From NCBI GenBank assembly GCA_018825785.1, contig JAHKAY010000007.1, positions 35,033 to 99,032 on the forward strand: DNA of 64,000 nucleotides, given 5' to 3'. The notes beneath the pieces were generated by a model. It saw only the letters and a list, made by a program, of their open reading frames with translations. It made no database searches and was not told the DNA's origin. Position numbers and translations under genes: made by a program. How positions within the stretch are numbered: the first letter of the stretch is position 1; every line of letters starts with the position of its first letter. The DNA comes from Chloroflexota bacterium (GTDB lineage: Bacteria; Chloroflexota; Dehalococcoidia; JACVQG01; JAHKAY01). Below are positions 5,920 through 46,291 of this stretch, piece by piece.

Positions 5920-7275
5920 TCATCCAGGCACCTGCGGCAGGTGGGCCAGGGCCTCTTCCACCTTCTCCTTGGGATAGGCAAAGTCTGCGAGCTTCCCGGT
6001 GAGGTATTCGTCGTAGGCCTGGAGGTCAAAGTGGCCGTGGCCTGAGTGGGCCAGGAGGATGACCTTCTTCTCCCCCGTCTGCTTGCACTTCAGGGCCTCA
6101 TCTATGACCACCCGGATGGCGTGGGCAGGCTCCGGTCCGGAGAGGATGCCCTCGGTCCGGGCGAAGGTCACCGCGGCCTCAAACACCGGGTTCTGGTGCA
6201 CCGCCACGGCCTCCACCAGTTTCCGGTCGTAGAGGTAGCATATGATGGGGGCCATGCCGTGATACCTCAGGCCTCCCGCGTGGATGCGGGGCGGCATGAA
6301 GGTATGGCCCAGGGTGTACATCTTCACTATGGGGGCCAGGCCAGCAGTATCACCGTAGTCAAAGCGGTAAAGTCCGCGGGTGAGGCTGGGGCAGGCCTCA
6401 GGCTCCGCGCAGATTATCCGCGGGTTCCGCTTCCCCTGGAGCTTTTCCCTGACAAAGGGCAGGAACATCCCGGCGAAGTTACTCCCCCCGCCCACGCAGC
6501 CCACAATGATGTCGGGATACTCCCCCGCCTTCTCCATCTGGAGCATGGCCTCCTGCCCGATGATGGTCTGGTGGAGGAGGACATGGTTCACCACTGAGCC
6601 AATTGAGTACTTGGTGTCGTCGTGGGTGGCGGCGTCCTCTACCGCCTCGCTGATGGCGATACCCAGGCTCCCCGGGTTGTCCGGTTCCTGGGCCAGGATA
6701 GACCTTCCGGTGTTGGTATCCTGGCTGGGGCTGGGGACCACCTGGGCACCCCATGTCTCCATCAGGATGCGGCGGTAGGGTTTCTGGTGATAGCTCACCC
6801 TGACCATATAGACCTTGAGCTTCAGGCCCATAAACTGGCAGCCCATGGCCAGGGCACTGCCCCACTGTCCCGCTCCTGTCTCGGTGGCCAGGCGCTTAAC
6901 GCCTTCAACCTTGTTGTAGTAGGCCTGGGCCACGGCGGTATTGAGCTTGTGGCTCCCCGCCGGGCTCACCCCCTCATACTTGTAGTAGATGTGGGCCGGG
7001 GTGCCCAGGGCCTTCTCCAGCCTGCGGGCCCGGATGAGGGGGGTGGGCCGCCATAGCTTGTAGACCCCCAGGACCTCATCGGGGATCTCAATGAGGCGCT
7101 CCTTGCTGAACTCCTGCTCGTCACAGGCTGCAGCAAAGAGGGGCGGGGGAAGCCTGGTGGGCTCCTTGGTCCCGGGGTGGAGCATGGGTGGCATGGGGGT
7201 GGGCAGGTCGGGGAGAACATTGTACCAGTGGCTGGGCATCTCCTTCTCAGTGAGGATAATCTTGGTTGCCTCCAT
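5920..7275 (-). CDS. trpB2: Tryptophan synthase beta chain, TrpB2-type (long form)
   Basis: 451 aa with the characteristic TrpB2 N-terminus (…[13 protein letters not shown]…) and the PLP lysine region ([11 protein letters not shown]). Confidence 0.85.
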
Positions 7276-22189: not shown

Positions 22190-23968
22190 ATGAAGAGTCT
22201 AGCGAAGTGGGCAGGTTTCACCTCTATTGGCCTGCTCTTTCTGCTCCTGATTTACTCAGTTGTTCACACGGGTGCTCCAACGAGCCCTTCGAGCCCTCCC
22301 GGGCTTGCCGAAGCCGAAGTGCCCGCGCCGGTTCCAGGAGACGAAGCGCCTACGCCGGTTATATCTGACGTTTCTGAACGGCGCTCCTTTATGTATCCAG
22401 AGGGCGTAACTACATCGGCTGGTGGCGCAATTTGGATTACCGCTACCAATAATGAAGTTGTCAGGTTGCGCTCAGATAACCCTGACGTAGAGCTAAGGTT
22501 CGGCTCTCAGGGCTCGGGTGATGGCCAGTTCAACAGCCCGTTTGGCATTGTCGTTGATTCTTCGGGCGATGTCTACGTTGCAGACACTTCCAATCATCGC
22601 ATCCAGAAGTTCACCAGTTCAGGGGGGTTCATCACCAAGTGGGGCTCTCCAGGTTCCGGTGACGGTGAGGGCCAGCCCGCCTACCCGTGGAGCATCGCGG
22701 TTGACCCATCGGGCAATGTCTATGTTGCCGACGTTTTCAGTCATCAAATTCAGAAGTTGACCAGTTCGATGGAGCCCATCACCAAGTGGGGCTCTTTGGG
22801 TTCTGGTGACGGCGAGCTCAACGATCCGCGTGCCGTCGCGGTTGATTCTTCGGGCAACGTCTACATCGCGGATAGTTCCAATAATCGCATCCAGAAGTTC
22901 ACCAGTTCAGGGGAGTTCATCACCAAATGGGGCTCCGCGGGTTCCGGTAGTGGCCAGTTCAACCTTCCAGCGGGTTTGGCGGTTGATTCTTCGGGCAATG
23001 TGTATGTTGCCGATACTTTCAACAATCGCATCCAGAAGTTCACCAGTTCAGGGGAGTTCATCACCAAGTGGGGTTCTAGGGGTTCTGGTGACGGCGAGCT
23101 CAACGGTCCGCGTGGCATGGCGGTTGATTCTTCGGGCAATATCTACGCTACGGATACTTCCAATAATCGCATACAGAAGTTCACCAGTTCAGGGGAGTTC
23201 ATCACCAAGTGGGGCTCTACGGGTTCTGGTGACGGCCAGTTCATAGGCCCGTTCGGCGTTGCAGTTGATTCCTCCGACAATATCTATGTTGCCGAGGTGA
23301 GCAATAATCGCATTCAGAAGTTCACCAGTTCAGGGGGGTTCATCACCAAGTGGGGCTCTCCGGGTTCCAGTGACGGCCAGTTCAGGGGCGCAACGGGCGT
23401 GGCGGTTGATGCCTCCGGCAATGTCTATGTTGCCGACTATTTGAATAATCGCATCCAGAAGTTCACCAGTTCAGGGGGGTTCATCACCAAGCGGGGTTCT
23501 TATGGCAGCAGGGAGGGCGAGCTCAACCACCCAATGGGCTTGGCGGTTGATGCCTCAGGCAATGTCTATGTTGCCGATAGGGAGAATCATCGCATACAGA
23601 AGTTCACCAGTTCAGGGGAGTTCATCGCCAAGTGGGGTTCTATGGGTGAGGGTGACGGCGAGTTCAACCATCCAATGGGCGTTGCGGTTGATGCCTCCGG
23701 CAATGTCTATGTTGCCGATAGCTGCAATAATCGCATCCAGAAGTTCACCAGTTCAGGGGGGTTCATCGCCATCTGGGGCTCCACGGGTTTTGATTACGCC
23801 CAGTTCCTGAATCCACGGGGCGTGGCGATTGATGCCTCCGGCAATGTCTATGTTGCCGATTGGGAAAATAGGCGCGTCCAGGAGTTCACCAGTTCAGGGG
23901 TGTTCATCACCCAGTGGGGCACCCCGTTCACTATTAGCGAACTCTATAGCCTAGGTCTAATCCAGTAA
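22190..23968 (+). CDS. Secreted NHL-repeat beta-propeller protein (~11 repeats)
   Basis: ATG at 22190 after AGGAGG; signal/TM segment; repeated unit NNRIQKFTSSGEFITKWGS.GSGDGQF..P.GVAVDSSGNVYVAD is a typical NHL repeat. Confidence 0.8.
   Translation: MKSLAKWAGFTSIGLLFLLLIYSVVHTGAPTSPSSPPGLAEAEVPAPVPGDEAPTPVISDVSERRSFMYPEGVTTSAGGAIWITATNNEVVRLRSDNPDVELRFGSQGSGDGQFNSPFGIVVDSSGDVYVADTSNHRIQKFTSSGGFITKWGSPGSGDGEGQPAYPWSIAVDPSGNVYVADVFSHQIQKLTSSMEPITKWGSLGSGDGELNDPRAVAVDSSGNVYIADSSNNRIQKFTSSGEFITKWGSAGSGSGQFNLPAGLAVDSSGNVYVADTFNNRIQKFTSSGEFITKWGSRGSGDGELNGPRGMAVDSSGNIYATDTSNNRIQKFTSSGEFITKWGSTGSGDGQFIGPFGVAVDSSDNIYVAEVSNNRIQKFTSSGGFITKWGSPGSSDGQFRGATGVAVDASGNVYVADYLNNRIQKFTSSGGFITKRGSYGSREGELNHPMGLAVDASGNVYVADRENHRIQKFTSSGEFIAKWGSMGEGDGEFNHPMGVAVDASGNVYVADSCNNRIQKFTSSGGFIAIWGSTGFDYAQFLNPRGVAIDASGNVYVADWENRRVQEFTSSGVFITQWGTPFTISELYSLGLIQ
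22560..23900 (+). repeat. Approximately 126-bp in-frame tandem repeats (NHL repeat units) with high DNA-level identity
   Basis: Recurrent strings such as aatcgcatccagaagttcaccagttcagggg(a/g)gttcatcaccaagtggggctct at roughly 126-bp spacing. Confidence 0.8.
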
Positions 23969-24011: not shown

Positions 24012-25550
24012 ATGCGCCGGACACTATTGCGAACTGCGTTTACATTGGCCTTGTTCCTCTCGATGGTGACGTGTGGAGCACCCCAAGCTACCCCAACCCC
24101 TGCTGTGTCACCTGCGCCAACCCCCACTTCTGCACCCGGACCAATCACAGTTCCTAAAGCTGTCGCAATCCCCGTAAGCGTCGTCTGGGCCCGCCAGTTC
24201 GGCACACCGGATGAAGACCGCGCCCAGGGCGTGGCGCTGGACAGCGCACGGAACATCTACATCGCGGGCGATACCCTTGGTAGCCTGCCAGGCCAGACCT
24301 CAGCGGGGAGCTGGGATACCTTCGTGCGCAAGTATGACCCCAATGGCAAGGAGATATGGACCCGCCAGTTCGGCACACCGGATGAAGACCGCGCCCAGGG
24401 CGTGGCGCTGGACAGCGCAGGGAACTTCTACATTGTGGGCGAGACAGGTGGGAGCCTGCCGGGGCAGGCATCGGCAGGCAAGTCGGACGCCTTTGTGCGC
24501 AAGTATGACCCCAATGGCAAGGAGATATGGACCCGCCAGTTCGGCACATCCGATGTAGACACGGCCGCGGGTGTGGCGGTGGACAGCGCAGGGAACATCT
24601 ACATCGTGGGCGAGACAGGTGGGAGCCTGCCGGGGCAGGCATCGGCAGGCAAGTCGGACGCCTTCGTGCGCAAGTATGACCCCAATGGCAAGGAGATATG
24701 GACCCGCCAGTTCGGCACATCCGATGTGGACACGGCCGCGGGTGTGGCGGTGGACAGCACAGGGAACTTCTACATTGTGGGCGATACCCTTGGTAGCCTG
24801 CCAGGCCAGACCTCAGCGGGCAGCTACGACGCCTTCGTGCGCAAGTATGACCCCAATGGCAAGGAGATATGGACCCGCCAGTTCGGCACACCGCTCCCCG
24901 ATGTAGACACGGCCACGGGTGTAGCGGTGGACAGCACAGGGAACGTCTACATCGCGGGCACTGTGTATGGGAGCCTGCCCCGGCAGGCCGCGTTGGGCAT
25001 GTGGGATGCCTTTGTGCGCAAGTATGACCCTGATGGCAAGGAGATATGGACCCGCCAGTTCGGCAGCTCGGTCACGGATAATGCCCGGGGCGTGGCGCTG
25101 GACAGCGCAGGGAACATCTACATCGCGGGCGATACAAATGGGACCCTGCGGGGGCAGGCCTCGGCGGGGAAAACGGACGCTATTCTGCTTCTGGCAGGAA
25201 CGAGTCCTGCTCCGAGTGTGCCTCTGGATCCTTCGGACACAACAGCGCCTGTGGTTACCTGGGTCGGGTATTTCGGACGCGAATGGGAAACTGCAAGCAT
25301 TGCTTGGAAGACCAACGAGCCAACTATCGGCCGAGTAGAATATTGCATATGGAATGGCCCGACCCCCGAATATGAGATGATTACTGATTGGACTGAGGAG
25401 CCAGATACCACCGGCGCTGTTACCCTGACAGAGCTTGAATGGTGGGTCACGTATCAGTACAGAGTGAGGGTGAAAGACGCTGGAGGAAACGAAGCAGTAT
25501 CCGAAAATAAGAGTTTCTACACTTACATCCACGGATTCGTGAACCCCTAG
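24012..25550 (+). CDS. Secreted lipoprotein with ~7 SBBP-type beta-propeller repeats and a C-terminal FN3/PAP-N-like domain
   Basis: ATG 24012 after AAAGGAGAG; lipobox LSMVTCG; repeated ~60-aa unit WTRQFGT.D.D.A.GVA.DS.GN.YI.G.T.GSLPGQ.SAG..DAFVRKYDPNGKEI; C-terminal WNGPTPEYEM...YQYRVRVKDAGGNE. Confidence 0.75.
   Translation: MRRTLLRTAFTLALFLSMVTCGAPQATPTPAVSPAPTPTSAPGPITVPKAVAIPVSVVWARQFGTPDEDRAQGVALDSARNIYIAGDTLGSLPGQTSAGSWDTFVRKYDPNGKEIWTRQFGTPDEDRAQGVALDSAGNFYIVGETGGSLPGQASAGKSDAFVRKYDPNGKEIWTRQFGTSDVDTAAGVAVDSAGNIYIVGETGGSLPGQASAGKSDAFVRKYDPNGKEIWTRQFGTSDVDTAAGVAVDSTGNFYIVGDTLGSLPGQTSAGSYDAFVRKYDPNGKEIWTRQFGTPLPDVDTATGVAVDSTGNVYIAGTVYGSLPRQAALGMWDAFVRKYDPDGKEIWTRQFGSSVTDNARGVALDSAGNIYIAGDTNGTLRGQASAGKTDAILLLAGTSPAPSVPLDPSDTTAPVVTWVGYFGREWETASIAWKTNEPTIGRVEYCIWNGPTPEYEMITDWTEEPDTTGAVTLTELEWWVTYQYRVRVKDAGGNEAVSENKSFYTYIHGFVNP
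24170..25150 (+). repeat. Approximately 180-bp in-frame tandem repeats (SBBP units), several copies near-identical at DNA level
   Basis: For example gtgcgcaagtatgaccccaatggcaaggagatatggacccgccagttcggcaca recurs 6 times. Confidence 0.8.
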
Positions 25551-37620: not shown

Positions 37621-38022
37621 CTACGAGGCTGGGGCAGGCCTCAGGACCAGGTTCACGGCGGTGGCAAAGCCCTGCCATTCCTGGGTCATCCTGGCCAGGT
37701 TCCGGCTCCCCTTCTCCGTGAGCTGGTAGTATCTCCTCTCCTGGCCGCCGGGGAGACGCTCCCAGCGGGAAGAGAGATAGCCCTGCCTCTCCAGACGGTG
37801 GAGGGCCGGATAGAGGGTCCCCTCCCGAAGCTGGAAATAGCCCTGACTCCTCTTCTCCAGCTCCTTGATAATCTGATAGCCATACATGGGCTTCTCACTG
37901 ATGAGGGTGAGGAGCAGGGAATCGGTATTGCCCTTTAGTAGCTCTCTGACATACTTCACGGGATACCTCGCAATGCTATGTGCGGGCATCATAGCACCGG
38001 CCCCTGGCCCTGTCAACGCCAT
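37621..38022 (-). CDS. PadR-family transcriptional regulator
   Basis: LLLTLISEKPMYGYQIIKELEKRSQGYFQLREGTLYPALHRLERQGYL is the PadR winged helix. The true start may be the internal MMPAHS. Confidence 0.85.
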   Translation of the reverse strand: MALTGPGAGAMMPAHSIARYPVKYVRELLKGNTDSLLLTLISEKPMYGYQIIKELEKRSQGYFQLREGTLYPALHRLERQGYLSSRWERLPGGQERRYYQLTEKGSRNLARMTQEWQGFATAVNLVLRPAPAS

Positions 38023-38064
38023 TCGGCTTGACGGGGGATAGGAGAATAATTAGCATAAGAGAAG

Positions 38065-40575: not shown

Positions 40576-42825
40576 TTGGCCCTGTTCTCCATGAGCCTGG
40601 GCGGGGTGGTGGGGCTGGTTGCCAGCGCGGCCCTCCCCTGGCTCCTCTTCCTGGTCCTTTCTGTCCTCGGCCCGGCTCTGGCCTTTTTCCTTCGCCGCCG
40701 GCGTGGCCTTTTCCTCGCCGCCCTGGCCCTGATGGCCCTGGGCGTGGGGGGCCTGCGGGTGAAGGCCCTTCCACCACCCGGGGAGGGCCTGGTCCCCTTC
40801 CTGGGCCGGGAGGTAGACCTGGAGGGGGCGGTGGTTGATGGCCCCCAGCCCGCCGACGGCCTCCAGATGGTCCGCCTCAGCGTGGAAAGGGTAAATGGGG
40901 AGGAGGCCCGGGGGGAGGTGGGGGCCCTTCTCCCACCCCCCCTGGAGCTGGGTTACGGGGACCGGCTCCGTTTGAGAGGAAGGCTGGAGGAGAAATCTCC
41001 GCTTATCTTCCGGCCCCAGGTGGAGCTTCTGGAAAGGGGAAAGGGCTTTCTGCCCTGGCTCCACCACCTGCGTCTCGGACTGTCTGGAGCCCTGGCCCGC
41101 GCCCTGCCTGAGCCCCAGGCCTCCCTTTCCCAGGGCATCCTCCTGGGACTGCGCGGGAGCATCCCCCAGGACCTGAGGGACGCCTTTTCCCGGACCGGGA
41201 CGGCCCACATCCTGGCCATCTCCGGCCTCAATGTGGGGATACTGGCAGGTATCCTCCTCAGCTTCTTTGCCTGGGCATTGGGGCGGGAGAGGCCCACCTA
41301 TCTGGTCCTGGCCTTTCTGGGGATATGGCTCTATATCTTCCTCAGCGGCCTCATGCCCTCGGCGGTGAGGGCGGGGGTGATGGCCTCCATTTTTCTGATG
41401 GCTGAGGGCCTGGGCAGACAGCGCTCGGGCCTGGTGGCCCTGGCCTTTGCCGCCGCTCTTATGGCGGGGCTGAGGCCCTCCCTGCTGGGGGAGGTCTCCT
41501 TCCAGCTCAGCTTTCTGGCCATGGCCGGCCTGGTGGTCCTGGCCCCTCCCTTCCAGGCCCTGGGGAGGCGGACAGCCCTGCCCGGGTCCATGGTGGACGG
41601 CGTGGCCTACAGCCTGGGGGCCATCCTGGCCACCTGGCCCCTCATCGCCTACTACTTCGGCATCGTATCCCTGGTGGGCCTTCCCGCGACCCTTCTCGCC
41701 CTGCCCTCCCTGGCTGGGATCATTGTCTCCTCCGCCCTGGTGGCCGGTCTTGGCCTCATATTTTCTCCCCTGGGCTATGCCCTGGGCTGGGCCGCCTGGC
41801 TCTTCACCAGCTACCTCCTGGTGGTGGTGGAGCTCTTTTATCGCCTCCCCCTGGCCTTCTTCCGGGTGGAGTTCACCCCAGCCCTGGTCTGGGCCTACTA
41901 CCTGGGCCTGGGCCTCCTCATCTCCGGAGTCGCGATGGGTAGGAGGTCCCTGGCCCTCCTGAGGGAAAGACTCCCTCCCTTCTGGGAGCGCCTGCCCCGG
42001 AGGGGACTTCTCCTCGGCCTCTTTTTCCTTTCGGCTCTGGTCTGGTCGGCGGTCCTGTCTTTGCCCGACCAGAAGCTCAGGGTGAGCTTTCTTGATGTCG
42101 GGCAGGGCAGTGCTGTCCTCATCCAGAAGGGCACCGTTCAGGTCCTGGTGGACGGGGGGCCCAGCCCCGGGAAGCTCAACCAGGCCCTGGGCCAGGCCCT
42201 CCCCTTCTGGGACAGAAAGATAGAGGCGGTCGTCCTCACCCACCCCCACTCCGACCACCTCACCGGCCTCCTGGAGGTGCTCAAGAGGTATGAAGTGGAC
42301 ACGGTCCTTGACCCGGAGCTGGAGACGGCCTCTGCCCTCTACGAAGAATGGCGCCGGCTCCTTGAGGAGAAAGGTGTCCCCCTGCTCCGGGCCCGAGCCG
42401 GGCAGGAGCTCAGGCTGGGGGAGGTGACGGTGAAGGTGCTGAATCCCCAGGTGGAGTACCTCCAGGACCTGGACAACAGCAGTGTGGTCCTGCGCCTGGA
42501 GGCGGGGAGGGCCAGCTTCCTCCTGACCGGGGATATCTATCGGGCGGGGGAACTGGAGCTCCTGGCCCGGGGTGCCCTTTTGGAAAGCTCCGTCCTCCAG
42601 GTGGCCCATCACGGCAGCGGGGACTCCACCTCTGCCTCTTTCCTGGCGGCCGTCCAGCCTTTGGTAGCGGTAATCTCGCGGGAAGAGAAGGAGGACCACG
42701 CTGACCCTGAGGTGGTGGCCAGGCTGGAGGCCTTGGTGGGGGAGAGGCTCTACTTCACCTCCCGCCAGGGGACCATAGTCTTCACCACCGACGGCCAGAG
42801 GCTCTGGGTGAGGACATCAGGATGA
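40576..42825 (+). CDS. comEC: ComEC/Rec2 DNA internalization protein with C-terminal MBL domain
   Basis: 749-aa polytopic membrane protein, LAISGLNVGIL, C-terminal LTHPHSDHLTGLL...VAHHGS. Confidence 0.9.
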   Translation: MALFSMSLGGVVGLVASAALPWLLFLVLSVLGPALAFFLRRRRGLFLAALALMALGVGGLRVKALPPPGEGLVPFLGREVDLEGAVVDGPQPADGLQMVRLSVERVNGEEARGEVGALLPPPLELGYGDRLRLRGRLEEKSPLIFRPQVELLERGKGFLPWLHHLRLGLSGALARALPEPQASLSQGILLGLRGSIPQDLRDAFSRTGTAHILAISGLNVGILAGILLSFFAWALGRERPTYLVLAFLGIWLYIFLSGLMPSAVRAGVMASIFLMAEGLGRQRSGLVALAFAAALMAGLRPSLLGEVSFQLSFLAMAGLVVLAPPFQALGRRTALPGSMVDGVAYSLGAILATWPLIAYYFGIVSLVGLPATLLALPSLAGIIVSSALVAGLGLIFSPLGYALGWAAWLFTSYLLVVVELFYRLPLAFFRVEFTPALVWAYYLGLGLLISGVAMGRRSLALLRERLPPFWERLPRRGLLLGLFFLSALVWSAVLSLPDQKLRVSFLDVGQGSAVLIQKGTVQVLVDGGPSPGKLNQALGQALPFWDRKIEAVVLTHPHSDHLTGLLEVLKRYEVDTVLDPELETASALYEEWRRLLEEKGVPLLRARAGQELRLGEVTVKVLNPQVEYLQDLDNSSVVLRLEAGRASFLLTGDIYRAGELELLARGALLESSVLQVAHHGSGDSTSASFLAAVQPLVAVISREEKEDHADPEVVARLEALVGERLYFTSRQGTIVFTTDGQRLWVRTSG

Positions 42826-42890
42826 GTTTGCCCGCTCGCTTTCGTCACACTGAAGCCGTTGGCGGTGGGGTACGTCCCAGAATCAGAAGT

Positions 42891-43187
42891 TTGACACGCT
42901 GGCGGGATTATGATAGTATAATACATAGGACCTGAGAGTCCACCAAATCGATGAGAGGAGGTGTATTGTGAGGGTTCAGGCGATGCTAGGAGTTTGGCAG
43001 GTTGATAAGTGAGGCCCTGCTGTCTGGCAGGGCAGGCAAAGCTTAGACCGGGCTCGAGATAGGGAAGCGGAGCCAGTCTGAGGCACAGAGGCTCAATGCG
43101 GTGGTAACACCGAGAGTGAGTCGGGTCTAAGGAGAAGCGAATAACAGAAGGAGGGCGTCTGCAGAGGCGCGCTCCTTCATTTTTGTC
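42891..43187 (+). ncRNA. Candidate orphan transcription unit (sRNA or micro-ORF leader): promoter, ~260-nt lower-GC transcript, intrinsic terminator
   Basis: TTGACA 42891-42896, N17, TAGTAT 42914-42919 (TATAAT 42917-42922). No ORF of 60 aa or longer. Strong RBS GAGAGGAGG, then GTG at 42968 encoding a 14-aa peptide VRVQAMLGVWQVDK. Hairpin gccctgctgtctggcagggc. Terminator aaGGAGGGCGtctgcagaGGCGCGCTCCttcatttttgt at ~43149-43187. Confidence 0.35.
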
Positions 43188-43314
43188 TGCTTGATGTTGT
43201 GGGTGGGACAATGTTCCCGCGAATGTCGATTGAACTTGCCTCCCTGGGACGGTTATAGACAATCTCCAAAGATAGAACTTTACCCCAAAGGGGGCCTCGG
43301 TTATACTTGAAGAC

Positions 43315-43476
43315 ATGCTGGGGCGGAGGGATTTTCTCAAGGGCCTGGCCCTGGGGGGAGGGGCGGTGCTCCTGGGGGCCTGCGCCCCTGACTCCTCTCC
43401 TGCCCTGACTCCTCCCCTGCCCCTGTCCCCTCTCCGGTCCCTTTGGCAGTCCCACACAAGGAGGAAGAGGCCATGA
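43315..43476 (+). other. 53-codon ORF encoding a perfect Tat signal peptide + lipobox, out of frame with downstream DUF362 gene (probable frameshift or fused-gene remnant)
   Basis: ATG 43315: MLGRRDFLKGLALGGGAVLLGACAPDSSPALTPPLPLSPLRS... (RRDFLK twin-arginine, LLGAC lipobox) ends TGA 43474. The DUF362 frame is open from 43392 and overlaps. Confidence 0.4.
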
Positions 43477-44375
43477 CCAGAGTGGTGCTGGCGAAGACAA
43501 AGGAGAGGGCGGCGGGGGTGAGGCGGGCCCTGGAGCTTCTGAAGCCCCCTTCCCCTTCGGGCCAGGATGTCCTCCTCAAGCCCAATTTCAACTCTGCCCA
43601 CCCCACCCCAGGCTCCACCCACGGCGATGTCCTGCGGACCCTGGTAGCTTGGCTCAAGGAAACGGGAGCCAGGACCATCACCGTGGCCGACAGGAGCGGC
43701 ATAGGGAATACCAGGAGGGTCATGGAGGAGAAGGGAGTCTTTGACCTGGGGCGGGAGCTGGGCTTCCAGGTGCTGGTCCTGAACGAGATGGAAAAGGGGG
43801 ACTGGGAGCCTATACAGGTGCCCGGCGGGCACTGGAGGGATGGCTTCTACTTTGCCCGCATCGCCCGGCAGGCCCCTTACATCGTGCAGACCTGCAATCT
43901 CAAGACCCACCGCTTTGGAGGGCATTTCACCCTCTCCCTCAAAAACACTGTGGGCCTGGTGGCCAGGACCCTCCCCGGCCAGACGCGGAACTATATGTTT
44001 GAGCTCCACTCCTCCCCGAACCAGCGGCTCATGATTGCCGAGACAAACACCGCCTATACCCCGACCCTTATCCTCCTAGACGGGTTGGAGGCCTTTGTGG
44101 AGGGGGGACCCGAAGCGGGCAAGAGCGTGGAGCCGGGGGTCATCATGGCAGGAACGGACCGGGTGGCCATAGACGCCGTGGGGGTTGCCATCCTGAGGCA
44201 CCTCGGCACCACCCGGGAGGTGAGCCGGGGTCGCATTTTCCAGCAGGAACAGATAGCCCGGGCGGTGGAGTTGGGGCTGGGGGTGGACAGTCCCCAGAAG
44301 ATAGACCTGGCCACCCCCGATAACGAAAGCGCGGACTTCGCCGAGACCATCGGGAAAGTCCTGGTTGGAGGATAG
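43473..44375 (+). CDS. DUF362-domain protein
   Basis: ATG 43473 preceded by AAGGAGGAAGAGG. ...[44 protein letters not shown] fits DUF362. The track ORF begins at TTG 43443. Confidence 0.65.
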
Positions 44376-45858: not shown

Positions 45859-46101
45859 CTATCTGAGTTTCCCTATCAGTTCCTCTCTTGAAGTGTTGTT
45901 CCAGAGACCTACTCTAGTGAGGATGTCGGACAGAGTGCCTTTGGCCAGAATGCGGTGAGCCGGGACGGTGATGTTGTGCACGCCAAGAGGCGTAGACTTT
46001 CGCAGCCTTATGTGACTGCCCCGCTGTCTGACGATTGCATAGCCCAGGGATTGGAGCAATCTGAGGACGTCGTCCCCGCTAGCCTGAGGCAGCTTTGGCA
46101 T
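45859..46101 (-). CDS. hicA: HicA-family mRNA interferase toxin
   Basis: 80 aa. LRLLQSLGYAIVRQRGSHIRLRK....HNITVPAHRILAKGTLSDILTRVGL is the HicA pattern. Confidence 0.75.
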   Translation of the reverse strand: MPKLPQASGDDVLRLLQSLGYAIVRQRGSHIRLRKSTPLGVHNITVPAHRILAKGTLSDILTRVGLWNNTSREELIGKLR

Positions 46102-46291
46102 TGGCTAGCTTTACCTCGGATAGGGTGAGAATGGTGATGGGCTCGTTCGTGTCGCCCAAGTGGGTAGCTACAGCCTCCTTGATGTTCTCAAACAGCTCGT
46201 CCAGGGTTTTCCCCTGAGTGAATATATCCTCCCCTATCCCCCGGGCGCACCAGAATTCGCCGTCAAAATAGGTCTCAATCTTTACCAGCAT
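46079..46291 (-). CDS. hicB: HicB-family antitoxin (UPF0150-like)
   Basis: ATG at 46291: MLVKIETYFDGEFWCARGIGEDIFTQGKTLDELFENIKEAVATHL. Overlaps the hicA start. The track ORF has a spurious 5' extension. Confidence 0.65.
   Translation of the reverse strand: MLVKIETYFDGEFWCARGIGEDIFTQGKTLDELFENIKEAVATHLGDTNEPITILTLSEVKLANAKAASG

Follow-up and report, generated by a model that had tools for sequence, protein, structure and literature searches.

In Coxiella burnetii, small RNAs (sRNAs) with sigma-70 promoters have been derived from miniature inverted-repeat transposable elements, or MITEs (PMC5896051; reviewed in PMC10969869). One such element, QMITE1, is 300-400 bp long, occurs in ~50 copies per genome, and is the source of CbsR3 and CbsR13 (PMC5896051). 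Mobile elements of a second type are likewise associated with RNA genes: one report describes sRNA modules of some IS110-family elements, such as Ssr9 of ISPpu9, and solo copies of such sRNAs that lack a recombinase (PMC12288879). A literature search for sRNAs in Chloroflexota turned up no paper describing any.

The locus considered here lies in the window, the whole 64-kb stretch of Chloroflexota DNA that was analysed, within the 647-nt spacer between comEC (40576-42825, + strand; Pfam Competence and Lactamase_B domains) and a gene encoding a DUF362 protein. The true start of the latter is the ATG at 43473, which is preceded at 8 nt by AAGGAGG. The genes around the unit are, in order, comEA, comEC, DUF362, rph, and tatD, plus a HicA-type gene; rph and tatD follow DUF362 on the same strand. 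Our favoured reading, held with slightly better than even confidence, is that the spacer encodes a stand-alone small RNA under selection, possibly of dual function, which a single narrow clade of Chloroflexota acquired by way of a MITE-like insertion.

The insertion resembles QMITE1 in being a non-autonomous element of a few hundred base pairs with terminal inverted repeats (here in the copy from a relative designated L084) and no transposase. Each element includes a sigma-70-type promoter of its own and an sRNA, predicted here from sequence, and in both cases conservation between strains suggests that the element has been retained. Unlike QMITE1 with its ~50 copies, the present unit was found in one copy and one context, and the window copy has no inverted repeats, its ends having decayed while the RNA appears constrained. 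The predicted RNA is also longer than the QMITE1 sRNAs, ends in a defined intrinsic terminator, and contains a three-way junction as well as a canonical ribosome-binding site (RBS) with a micro-ORF; the two elements share no sequence similarity.

Classical trans-acting sRNA genes, including dual-function ones that encode peptides, offer a second point of comparison. As in those genes, the unit is intergenic and runs independently from promoter to terminator, its 5' end is both the most conserved and the least structured part, and it closes with a strong terminator hairpin and a U-tract. The phylogenetic range is narrow, and the short ORF with a good RBS is reminiscent of the dual-function members. 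At ~260 nt and with a three-way junction, the RNA would exceed most base-pairing sRNAs in size and would have a more elaborate fold.

A preliminary description, made from the window sequence, had read much of this anatomy correctly: its promoter (TTGACA-N17-TAGTAT), strong Shine-Dalgarno sequence with a 14-codon micro-ORF, hairpin, structured stretch, terminal GC hairpin with U-tract, and lower GC content were all recovered here. The GC fraction is 0.525-0.565 over 42800-43300 versus ~0.65 in the flanks. The block shared with relatives begins ~60 nt 5' of the -35 hexamer, at ~42832, and its upstream part (42832-42890, + strand) is conserved in alignments with L084 and two further relatives, L092 and L093. 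In the window copy this upstream block abuts the comEC stop codon almost directly, since it lacks the leftmost ~190 nt of the ancestral insertion; the alignments show ~160-190 extra nt on this side in L084 and L093, the left inverted repeat included.

The sigma-70-type promoter occupies 42891-42919 (+ strand), with TTGACA at 42891-42896, a 17-nt spacer, and TAGTAT at 42914-42919 bearing a TG extension. It scores 10/12 and ranks second among promoter-like sites in a scan of 20 kb, in which 10 sites were found against 3.6 expected from shuffles. The -35 hexamer is the same in the window, L084, L092, and L093, and the -10 hexamer is the weaker TAGTCT in L084 and L092. Transcription would probably start near 42926, and the predicted transcript of ~260 nt (42926-43185, + strand) is a candidate small RNA on the basis of its fold z-score, its low divergence, and the lack of an Rfam match.

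The first 80 nt of the transcript (42926-43005, + strand) show no variation in four lineages, are weakly structured, and hold the RBS together with the first 12 codons of the micro-ORF; this stretch is a candidate sequence-specific functional region. The Shine-Dalgarno-like sequence GAGGAGGUG (42955-42963, + strand), invariant among the lineages, lies six nt before the GTG at 42968. From this GTG the micro-ORF (42968-43012, + strand) runs GTG AGG GTT CAG GCG ATG CTA GGA GTT TGG CAG GTT GAT AAG TGA; it has 14 codons, translates as VRVQAMLGVWQVDK, written (M)RVQAMLGVWQVDK as a peptide, and ends in UGA at 43010-43012. It is the sole + strand ORF beginning at a start codon within the unit. One nucleotide past the stop begins an 8-bp GC-rich hairpin (43014-43033, + strand; -14.4 kcal/mol), in which the loop is the site of the sole change seen in relatives.

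The structured stretch resolves into a 90-nt three-way-junction domain (43042-43131, + strand; -38.8 kcal/mol, z = -4.3). Helix P1 pairs 43042-43056 with 43117-43131, and all 14 of its pairs are invariant, as are all 5 pairs of P3 (43099-43112), which is capped by a GUAA loop. P2 (43070-43094) has one pair broken in L104, a metagenomic sequence that continues L092, and the other changes in the domain are confined to the strand that joins P1 to P2 and to the loop of P2. The unit closes with an intrinsic terminator (43147-43184, + strand), composed of a 13-bp stem (43147-43178) with one bulge and a GCAG loop, then A and UUUUU (43180-43184); the stem has a folding energy of -24.7 kcal/mol and a z-score of -6.5. 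A simple terminator scan omitted this structure, probably on account of the one-base bulge in the stem.

Folding of the full transcript (42926-43190, 265 nt) gave -107.7 kcal/mol and z = -4.8 on the + strand, as compared with z = -3.1 on the - strand. Minimum-free-energy and centroid predictions alike contain the terminator, and 42926-43000, with z = -1.5, is not significantly structured. Seven G-U pairs and the U-tract fit the + strand alone, which sets the orientation of the unit as +. A minus-strand transcript was considered and rejected: its fold is weaker, the G-U pairs become A-C mismatches, and the U-tract is absent.

Comparison with known RNA families yielded no assignment. At the gathering score, Rfam 15 gave zero matches across the entire 64-kb window, a test that covered SRP, 6S, RNase P, tmRNA, T-box, riboswitches, ribozymes, HEARO, group I/II introns, and others, and ARAGORN found no tRNA or tmRNA; the preliminary description had been unable to match the unit to SRP, tmRNA, 6S, or RNase P RNA by eye. 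Relaxing the threshold to E <= 10 on 42700-43450 returned chance-level matches alone. The top one, to sraL, scored 19.6 bits where the cut-off is 39, and its alignment covers essentially the terminator hairpin. The L084 copy likewise matched no family. Two likenesses noted by eye, of GGUGGUAACACC to a T-box and of GGGAAGCGGAGCC to SRP helix 8, were dropped when the respective models gave no score. As an RNA family the unit would be new, though its kind is already known.

Relatives of comEC were retrieved with their contigs and form a graded series of 77-92% protein identity in which the order comEA-comEC-DUF362-rph-tatD is kept. The DUF362 protein of the window has exact sequence matches in a Chloroflexota MAG (GCA_043814405.1; L001) and two Logan assemblies. 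According to nhmmer searches and alignments, the unit is carried by four or five close lineages, namely the window with L001-L003, L092 together with L104, L084, and L093, the last of which shows only the start of the unit before its contig stops. Five lineages (L090, L091, L085/L086, L087/L088, and L089) lack the unit at exactly the same site, and in these non-carriers DUF362 follows comEC after 66-266 nt or directly. In the neighbour-joining tree of comEC, ((L092,(window,L001)),(L090,L084)),((L093,L091),L085),L087,L089, carriers and non-carriers are interleaved, and comEC DNA divergence within the clade is 6-12%. The absence of the unit from sister lineages indicates that it is dispensable.

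The empty sites define the boundaries of an insertion. Relative to them (e.g., L085, CCCCCTAATCCCCGGGGAC), L084 carries ~585 bp of additional DNA (6267-6851 of that locus), and this segment ends on either side in a 13-nt inverted repeat; the two, CTAGTGTCGCGTC and GACGCGACACCAG, are 92% complementary. The two arms (6267-6279 and 6839-6851) sit exactly on the insertion boundaries set by the empty sites. L093 has the left arm as well, and among 111 loci the 10-mer core of the repeat was found elsewhere only at this L093 left end and in one chance match. The L084 insertion is flanked by the tetranucleotide CTAG at its left end and by CCAG at its right end; in empty sites the sequence is CTAA (L085) or CCAT (L090). 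These are compatible with a degraded 4-bp target-site duplication, short of proof. L091 reads CCCCCTAAGTG followed directly by AGAGAGGGG, and looks like an imprecise deletion that retained the first bases of the left end.

A derived form of the insertion is common to the window, L001, and L092/L104. It has lost the left ~190 nt with the left repeat and also the right repeat; the window copy thus retains neither arm. Its remaining right part (43186-43262, + strand) is degenerate, being ~10% different from L104, roughly the neutral rate, and barely alignable to L084. This patchy insertion with its inverted-repeat ends had not been visible to the preliminary description from the sequence alone.

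An insertion without a transposase and with 13-nt terminal inverted repeats is MITE-like. L084 indeed combines repeats at the boundaries, small size, and absence of a transposase, and its insertion contains no transposase-sized ORF, only short and probably spurious ones. Several copies in different contexts were not found in the window, in 68 other loci, or in a metagenome scan. In the window, nhmmer and a covariance-model search with filters off detected no second copy, and a 22-bit covariance-model match antisense in the DUF362 coding region (43509-43615) was rejected as GC-rich noise; a covariance model of the three-way junction detected none in the 68 other loci. The metagenome scan used a helix-tolerant pattern and returned 17 matches, 16 of which were due to chance; the single true one, L104, lies in the same comEC/DUF362 context as L092. 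As far as tested, and within the searches run, the segment would therefore be a MITE in architecture and not in copy number. A phage or plasmid origin was rejected: BLASTN searches of phage and plasmid collections with the RNA core and the whole L084 insertion gave no match, and four pattern scans of viral contigs yielded either nothing or one chance match (L094).

Conservation in relatives, one of the checks proposed in the preliminary description, is evident: the unit is kept at 2.7-3.9% divergence. In numbers, the transcript differs from that of L084 at 7 of 259 nt (2.7%) and from that of L092/L104 at 10 of 259 (3.9%), against differences of 8.7-14.7% between lineages at third codon positions of comEC and DUF362, a comparison that draws on four near-identical lineages. 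Thirteen of the 16 variable columns are unpaired, two constitute a compensatory pair, and one breaks the P2 pair in L104. With 136 of 259 positions paired, this avoidance of pairs has a hypergeometric P of 0.005, in a test that is partly circular in that the structure was predicted from the same sequences. The absence of any variable column from the first 80 nt has P = 0.002.

Covariation was also proposed as a check. One true covarying pair was found, a compensatory change from A-U to G-C in the L084 terminator stem (alignment columns 223 and 252); none was found in the three-way junction, and the shuffle control was non-significant (131/500). Taken across the four lineages, conservation exceeds neutral expectation with structure preserved, and the observations argue for a functional RNA whose 5' part would be constrained in sequence and whose 3' part would be constrained in structure. 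Recent spread by recombination, instead of constraint, could be a partial cause of the low divergence.

The history and action of the favoured small RNA may be pictured as follows. The ~585-bp insertion would have brought the gene as its cargo into the comEC/DUF362 spacer in a single narrow clade of Chloroflexota, and in the window lineage the ends of the insertion would then have decayed while the RNA module was kept by purifying selection. Transcription would start near 42926 from the promoter at 42891-42919 and end at the terminator at 43147-43184, giving an RNA of ~260 nt with an invariant, weakly structured 5' third that carries the RBS and 14-codon ORF, a stable hairpin, and the three-way-junction domain. 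Such an RNA would act in trans through its invariant 5' region, its folded domain, or both, regulating by base pairing or by protein binding, and it may be translated as well. A search for complementary targets within the 64-kb window found none above shuffled controls. Sequestration of a CsrA-type protein or of ribosomes was considered and rejected, as the four AGGAG motifs have P = 0.10 in dinucleotide-preserving shuffles and GGA is not enriched.

Of the two possibilities raised in the preliminary description, an sRNA or a leader-peptide locus, it is the first that has stood, on the strength of an independent unit, divergence well below the neutral rate, and changes that spare the stems. The unit has its own promoter and its own terminator around a short sequence without a long ORF. 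The second possibility, in its cis-acting form, was not supported, given the separate promoter of DUF362, the lack of an antiterminator on inspection and of a regulatory codon run, and the presence of the operon without the unit in relatives.

Whether the ORF itself is the point of the locus deserves separate consideration. On such an account the gene would encode a small protein, the 14-residue peptide (M)RVQAMLGVWQVDK, with the folded 3' two-thirds and the terminator serving only as a stabilising 3' UTR. The RBS is canonical, with GGAGG six nt before the GTG, and comparable to the AAGGAGG eight nt before the ATG of DUF362; moreover, RBS, start codon, and frame are unchanged in four lineages. 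The last three codons of the micro-ORF differ in L092/L104, where GAU becomes GAC (synonymous), AAG becomes AGG (a conservative K to R replacement), and UGA becomes UAA (stop retained), changes that are suggestive of translation, if anecdotal. However, the first 12 codons are free of substitutions, synonymous ones included, which places the constraint there at the nucleotide level. The 3' domain is constrained too, with changes that spare its stems, as would not be needed in a mere 3' UTR. By our own estimate, GGAGG with a start codon 5-9 nt further on is not rare by chance in a G-rich sequence of 260 nt, and an open frame of 14 codons is no longer than expected by chance. Translation of the micro-ORF is thus possible, and a gene whose product is the peptide alone is unlikely.

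Rather improbable, too, is that the unit is a non-functional passenger, in which promoter- and terminator-like sequences occur by chance on an inserted fragment and low divergence reflects recent recombination among close strains. The patchy distribution, in a clade whose comEC DNA is 6-12% different, is in keeping with this idea, as are the dispensability of the unit in sister lineages and the finding of a single compensatory change. Yet the right flank of the same insertion has diverged at or above the neutral rate and the transcript has not, substitutions avoid stems (P = 0.005, with the partial circularity mentioned above), and the change in the terminator is compensated. A perfect -35 hexamer, an extended -10, a terminator of -24.7 kcal/mol, and a fold z-score of -4.8 are, in addition, unlikely to occur jointly by chance.

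There is a slim chance that the locus represents something of a new kind, with the three-way-junction RNA belonging to an undescribed class of functional structured RNA that is the sole cargo of a transposase-less inverted-repeat element. Such an RNA might be a host-domesticated binder of a protein or ligand, or might mobilise or maintain its own element in trans.

A related and very unlikely reading has the RNA serving a mobile element, either as a guide or bridge-type RNA or as the regulatory RNA of a non-autonomous element that is mobilised in trans by a recombinase or transposase encoded elsewhere. The unit does lie within an inverted-repeat-bounded insertion of patchy presence, and an sRNA gene tied to a mobile-element-like segment resembles the sRNA modules, solo copies among them, that some IS110-family elements carry (PMC12288879). 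In contrast to those modules as described there, and to bridge and seek RNAs, the present unit is single-copy, has no recombinase nearby, and lacks above-chance complementarity to the ends or target. No recombinase, TnpB, or IscB was found among the called neighbour genes, and HEARO and all other Rfam models scored below their cut-offs. The RNA was no more complementary to the ends of the element or the empty target site than chance would give, 68% of shuffles yielding an 8-mer match, in a k-mer test crude enough that short bipartite matches of the bridge-RNA type would escape it. The guide-RNA idea was rejected on this result and on the absence of an adjacent recombinase. The one genomic context in all lineages and the single true metagenome match give no sign of current mobility, and the window copy has lost both ends while its RNA is still constrained.

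Least probable of the readings weighed is a leader that acts in cis, be it a leader-peptide attenuator or an unfamiliar riboswitch, and whose terminator would control read-through into a DUF362-rph-tatD operon. The layout of attenuator and riboswitch leaders is indeed present, with a promoter, a short ORF, a folded RNA, an intrinsic terminator, and genes downstream on the same strand, and a three-way junction with a GNRA-type loop is aptamer-like in style. However, as the preliminary description had also noted, DUF362 has its own promoter-like site 3' of the terminator (TTTACC-17-TATACT, 43279-43307), which every relative retains, whether or not it carries the RNA. This conserved promoter and the lack of an apparent antiterminator make a cis leader unlikely: the terminator appears in both folds, with no alternative pairing to either arm by inspection, and the micro-ORF has no tandem or repeated regulatory codons. 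No riboswitch or T-box model matched even at E <= 10, and relatives at 77-90% comEC protein identity (L085, L087, L089, L090, and L091) have this operon and lack the unit. Riboswitch classes known so far have wide distributions, in contrast to a unit found in one narrow clade. At 80 DUF362 loci from other genomes (GTDB; mostly Anaerolineae- or Chloroflexota-labelled MAGs), neither a homolog of the RNA nor synteny with comEC, rph, or tatD was found, which indicates that the RNA is not a DUF362-associated element. The small RNA thus probably has no cis effect on DUF362.

The stand-alone small RNA favoured here leaves current concepts unchallenged. Examples of sRNAs that derive from MITEs or are specific to a lineage had been described before. 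Its presence/absence polymorphism among very close relatives provides a ready comparison for finding its function. If transcribed, it would document a small RNA for uncultured Chloroflexota and give a clear example of the birth of an sRNA gene, delivered together with its promoter and terminator on a MITE-like insertion and kept while the ends of that insertion decay.

In the window, DUF362 is preceded by a 53-aa ORF encoding a twin-arginine (TAT) signal (43315–43476, beginning with the ATG at 43315), which contains a tandem repeat of 2.9 copies of a 17-nt unit (43384–43435). At this repeat the window is 17 nt longer than two relatives' loci, L084 and L104. Owing to these 17 additional nucleotides, the TAT-signal ORF is out of frame with DUF362 in the window, and the ATGA overlap between the two (43473–43476) arises because the extra bases shift the frame. 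In L084, the signal and DUF362 are fused as a single protein of 347 aa; in the related loci L085 and L089, DUF362 is found without any signal.

The conserved DUF362 promoter (TTTACC-17-TATACT; window 43279–43317 for promoter and start codon together) has its 3' end only 7 nt upstream of the ATG at 43315. Given this short gap, the mRNA from which the N-terminal extension is translated would be leaderless or nearly so. Relatives that lack the extension share the same promoter, followed by a leader of approximately 45 nt and an AAGGAGG site. Within the DUF362 coding region itself, the covariance model built on the three-way junction of the predicted small RNA returned a weak antisense match (22.3 bits; 43509–43615, - strand). 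As this segment is GC-rich and its sequence identity to the model is close to nil, it was judged a chance match and rejected as a second three-way junction.

On the other side of the spacer, a divergent gene of the phage-integrase family lies upstream of comEC in four relatives' loci (L087, L088, L090, and L091). The insertion carrying the small RNA is missing from all four, and comEA occupies the corresponding place in the window, L084, L085, and L089.

Across the 20 kb scanned, the top-scoring promoter-like pair was located at 37988–38056, between a 133-aa and a 220-aa ORF that match by position the PadR-family and cytidylate kinase genes called in L084. The two promoter-like sites point away from one another, with the minus-strand member matching at 11 of 12 positions with a TG extension and the plus-strand member at 9 of 12; the segment resembles a divergent promoter region of the usual kind. 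Elsewhere in the window, two long tandem arrays were detected, one with a period of 141/423 nt in about 9.7 copies (22553–23920) and the other with a period of 171 nt in about 5.8 copies (24186–25180). Translation of the consensus of the former yields an NHL-repeat-like motif (…SGNVYVADSSNNRIQKF…), and both arrays probably represent repeat domains within large surface proteins.

Downstream of tatD, the window, L001, L002, and L085 contain a gene with a HicA_toxin Pfam match and an adjoining 70-aa gene (about 45859–46291 in the window, - strand, from the L001 gene calls); for the 70-aa neighbor, Pfam gives no match. An ArsB/CitMHS transporter gene stands in place of this pair in L084 and L087, as does a MazE-family gene in L089. 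Judged by these differing genes, the 3' flank of the DUF362-rph-tatD operon is a variable spot.
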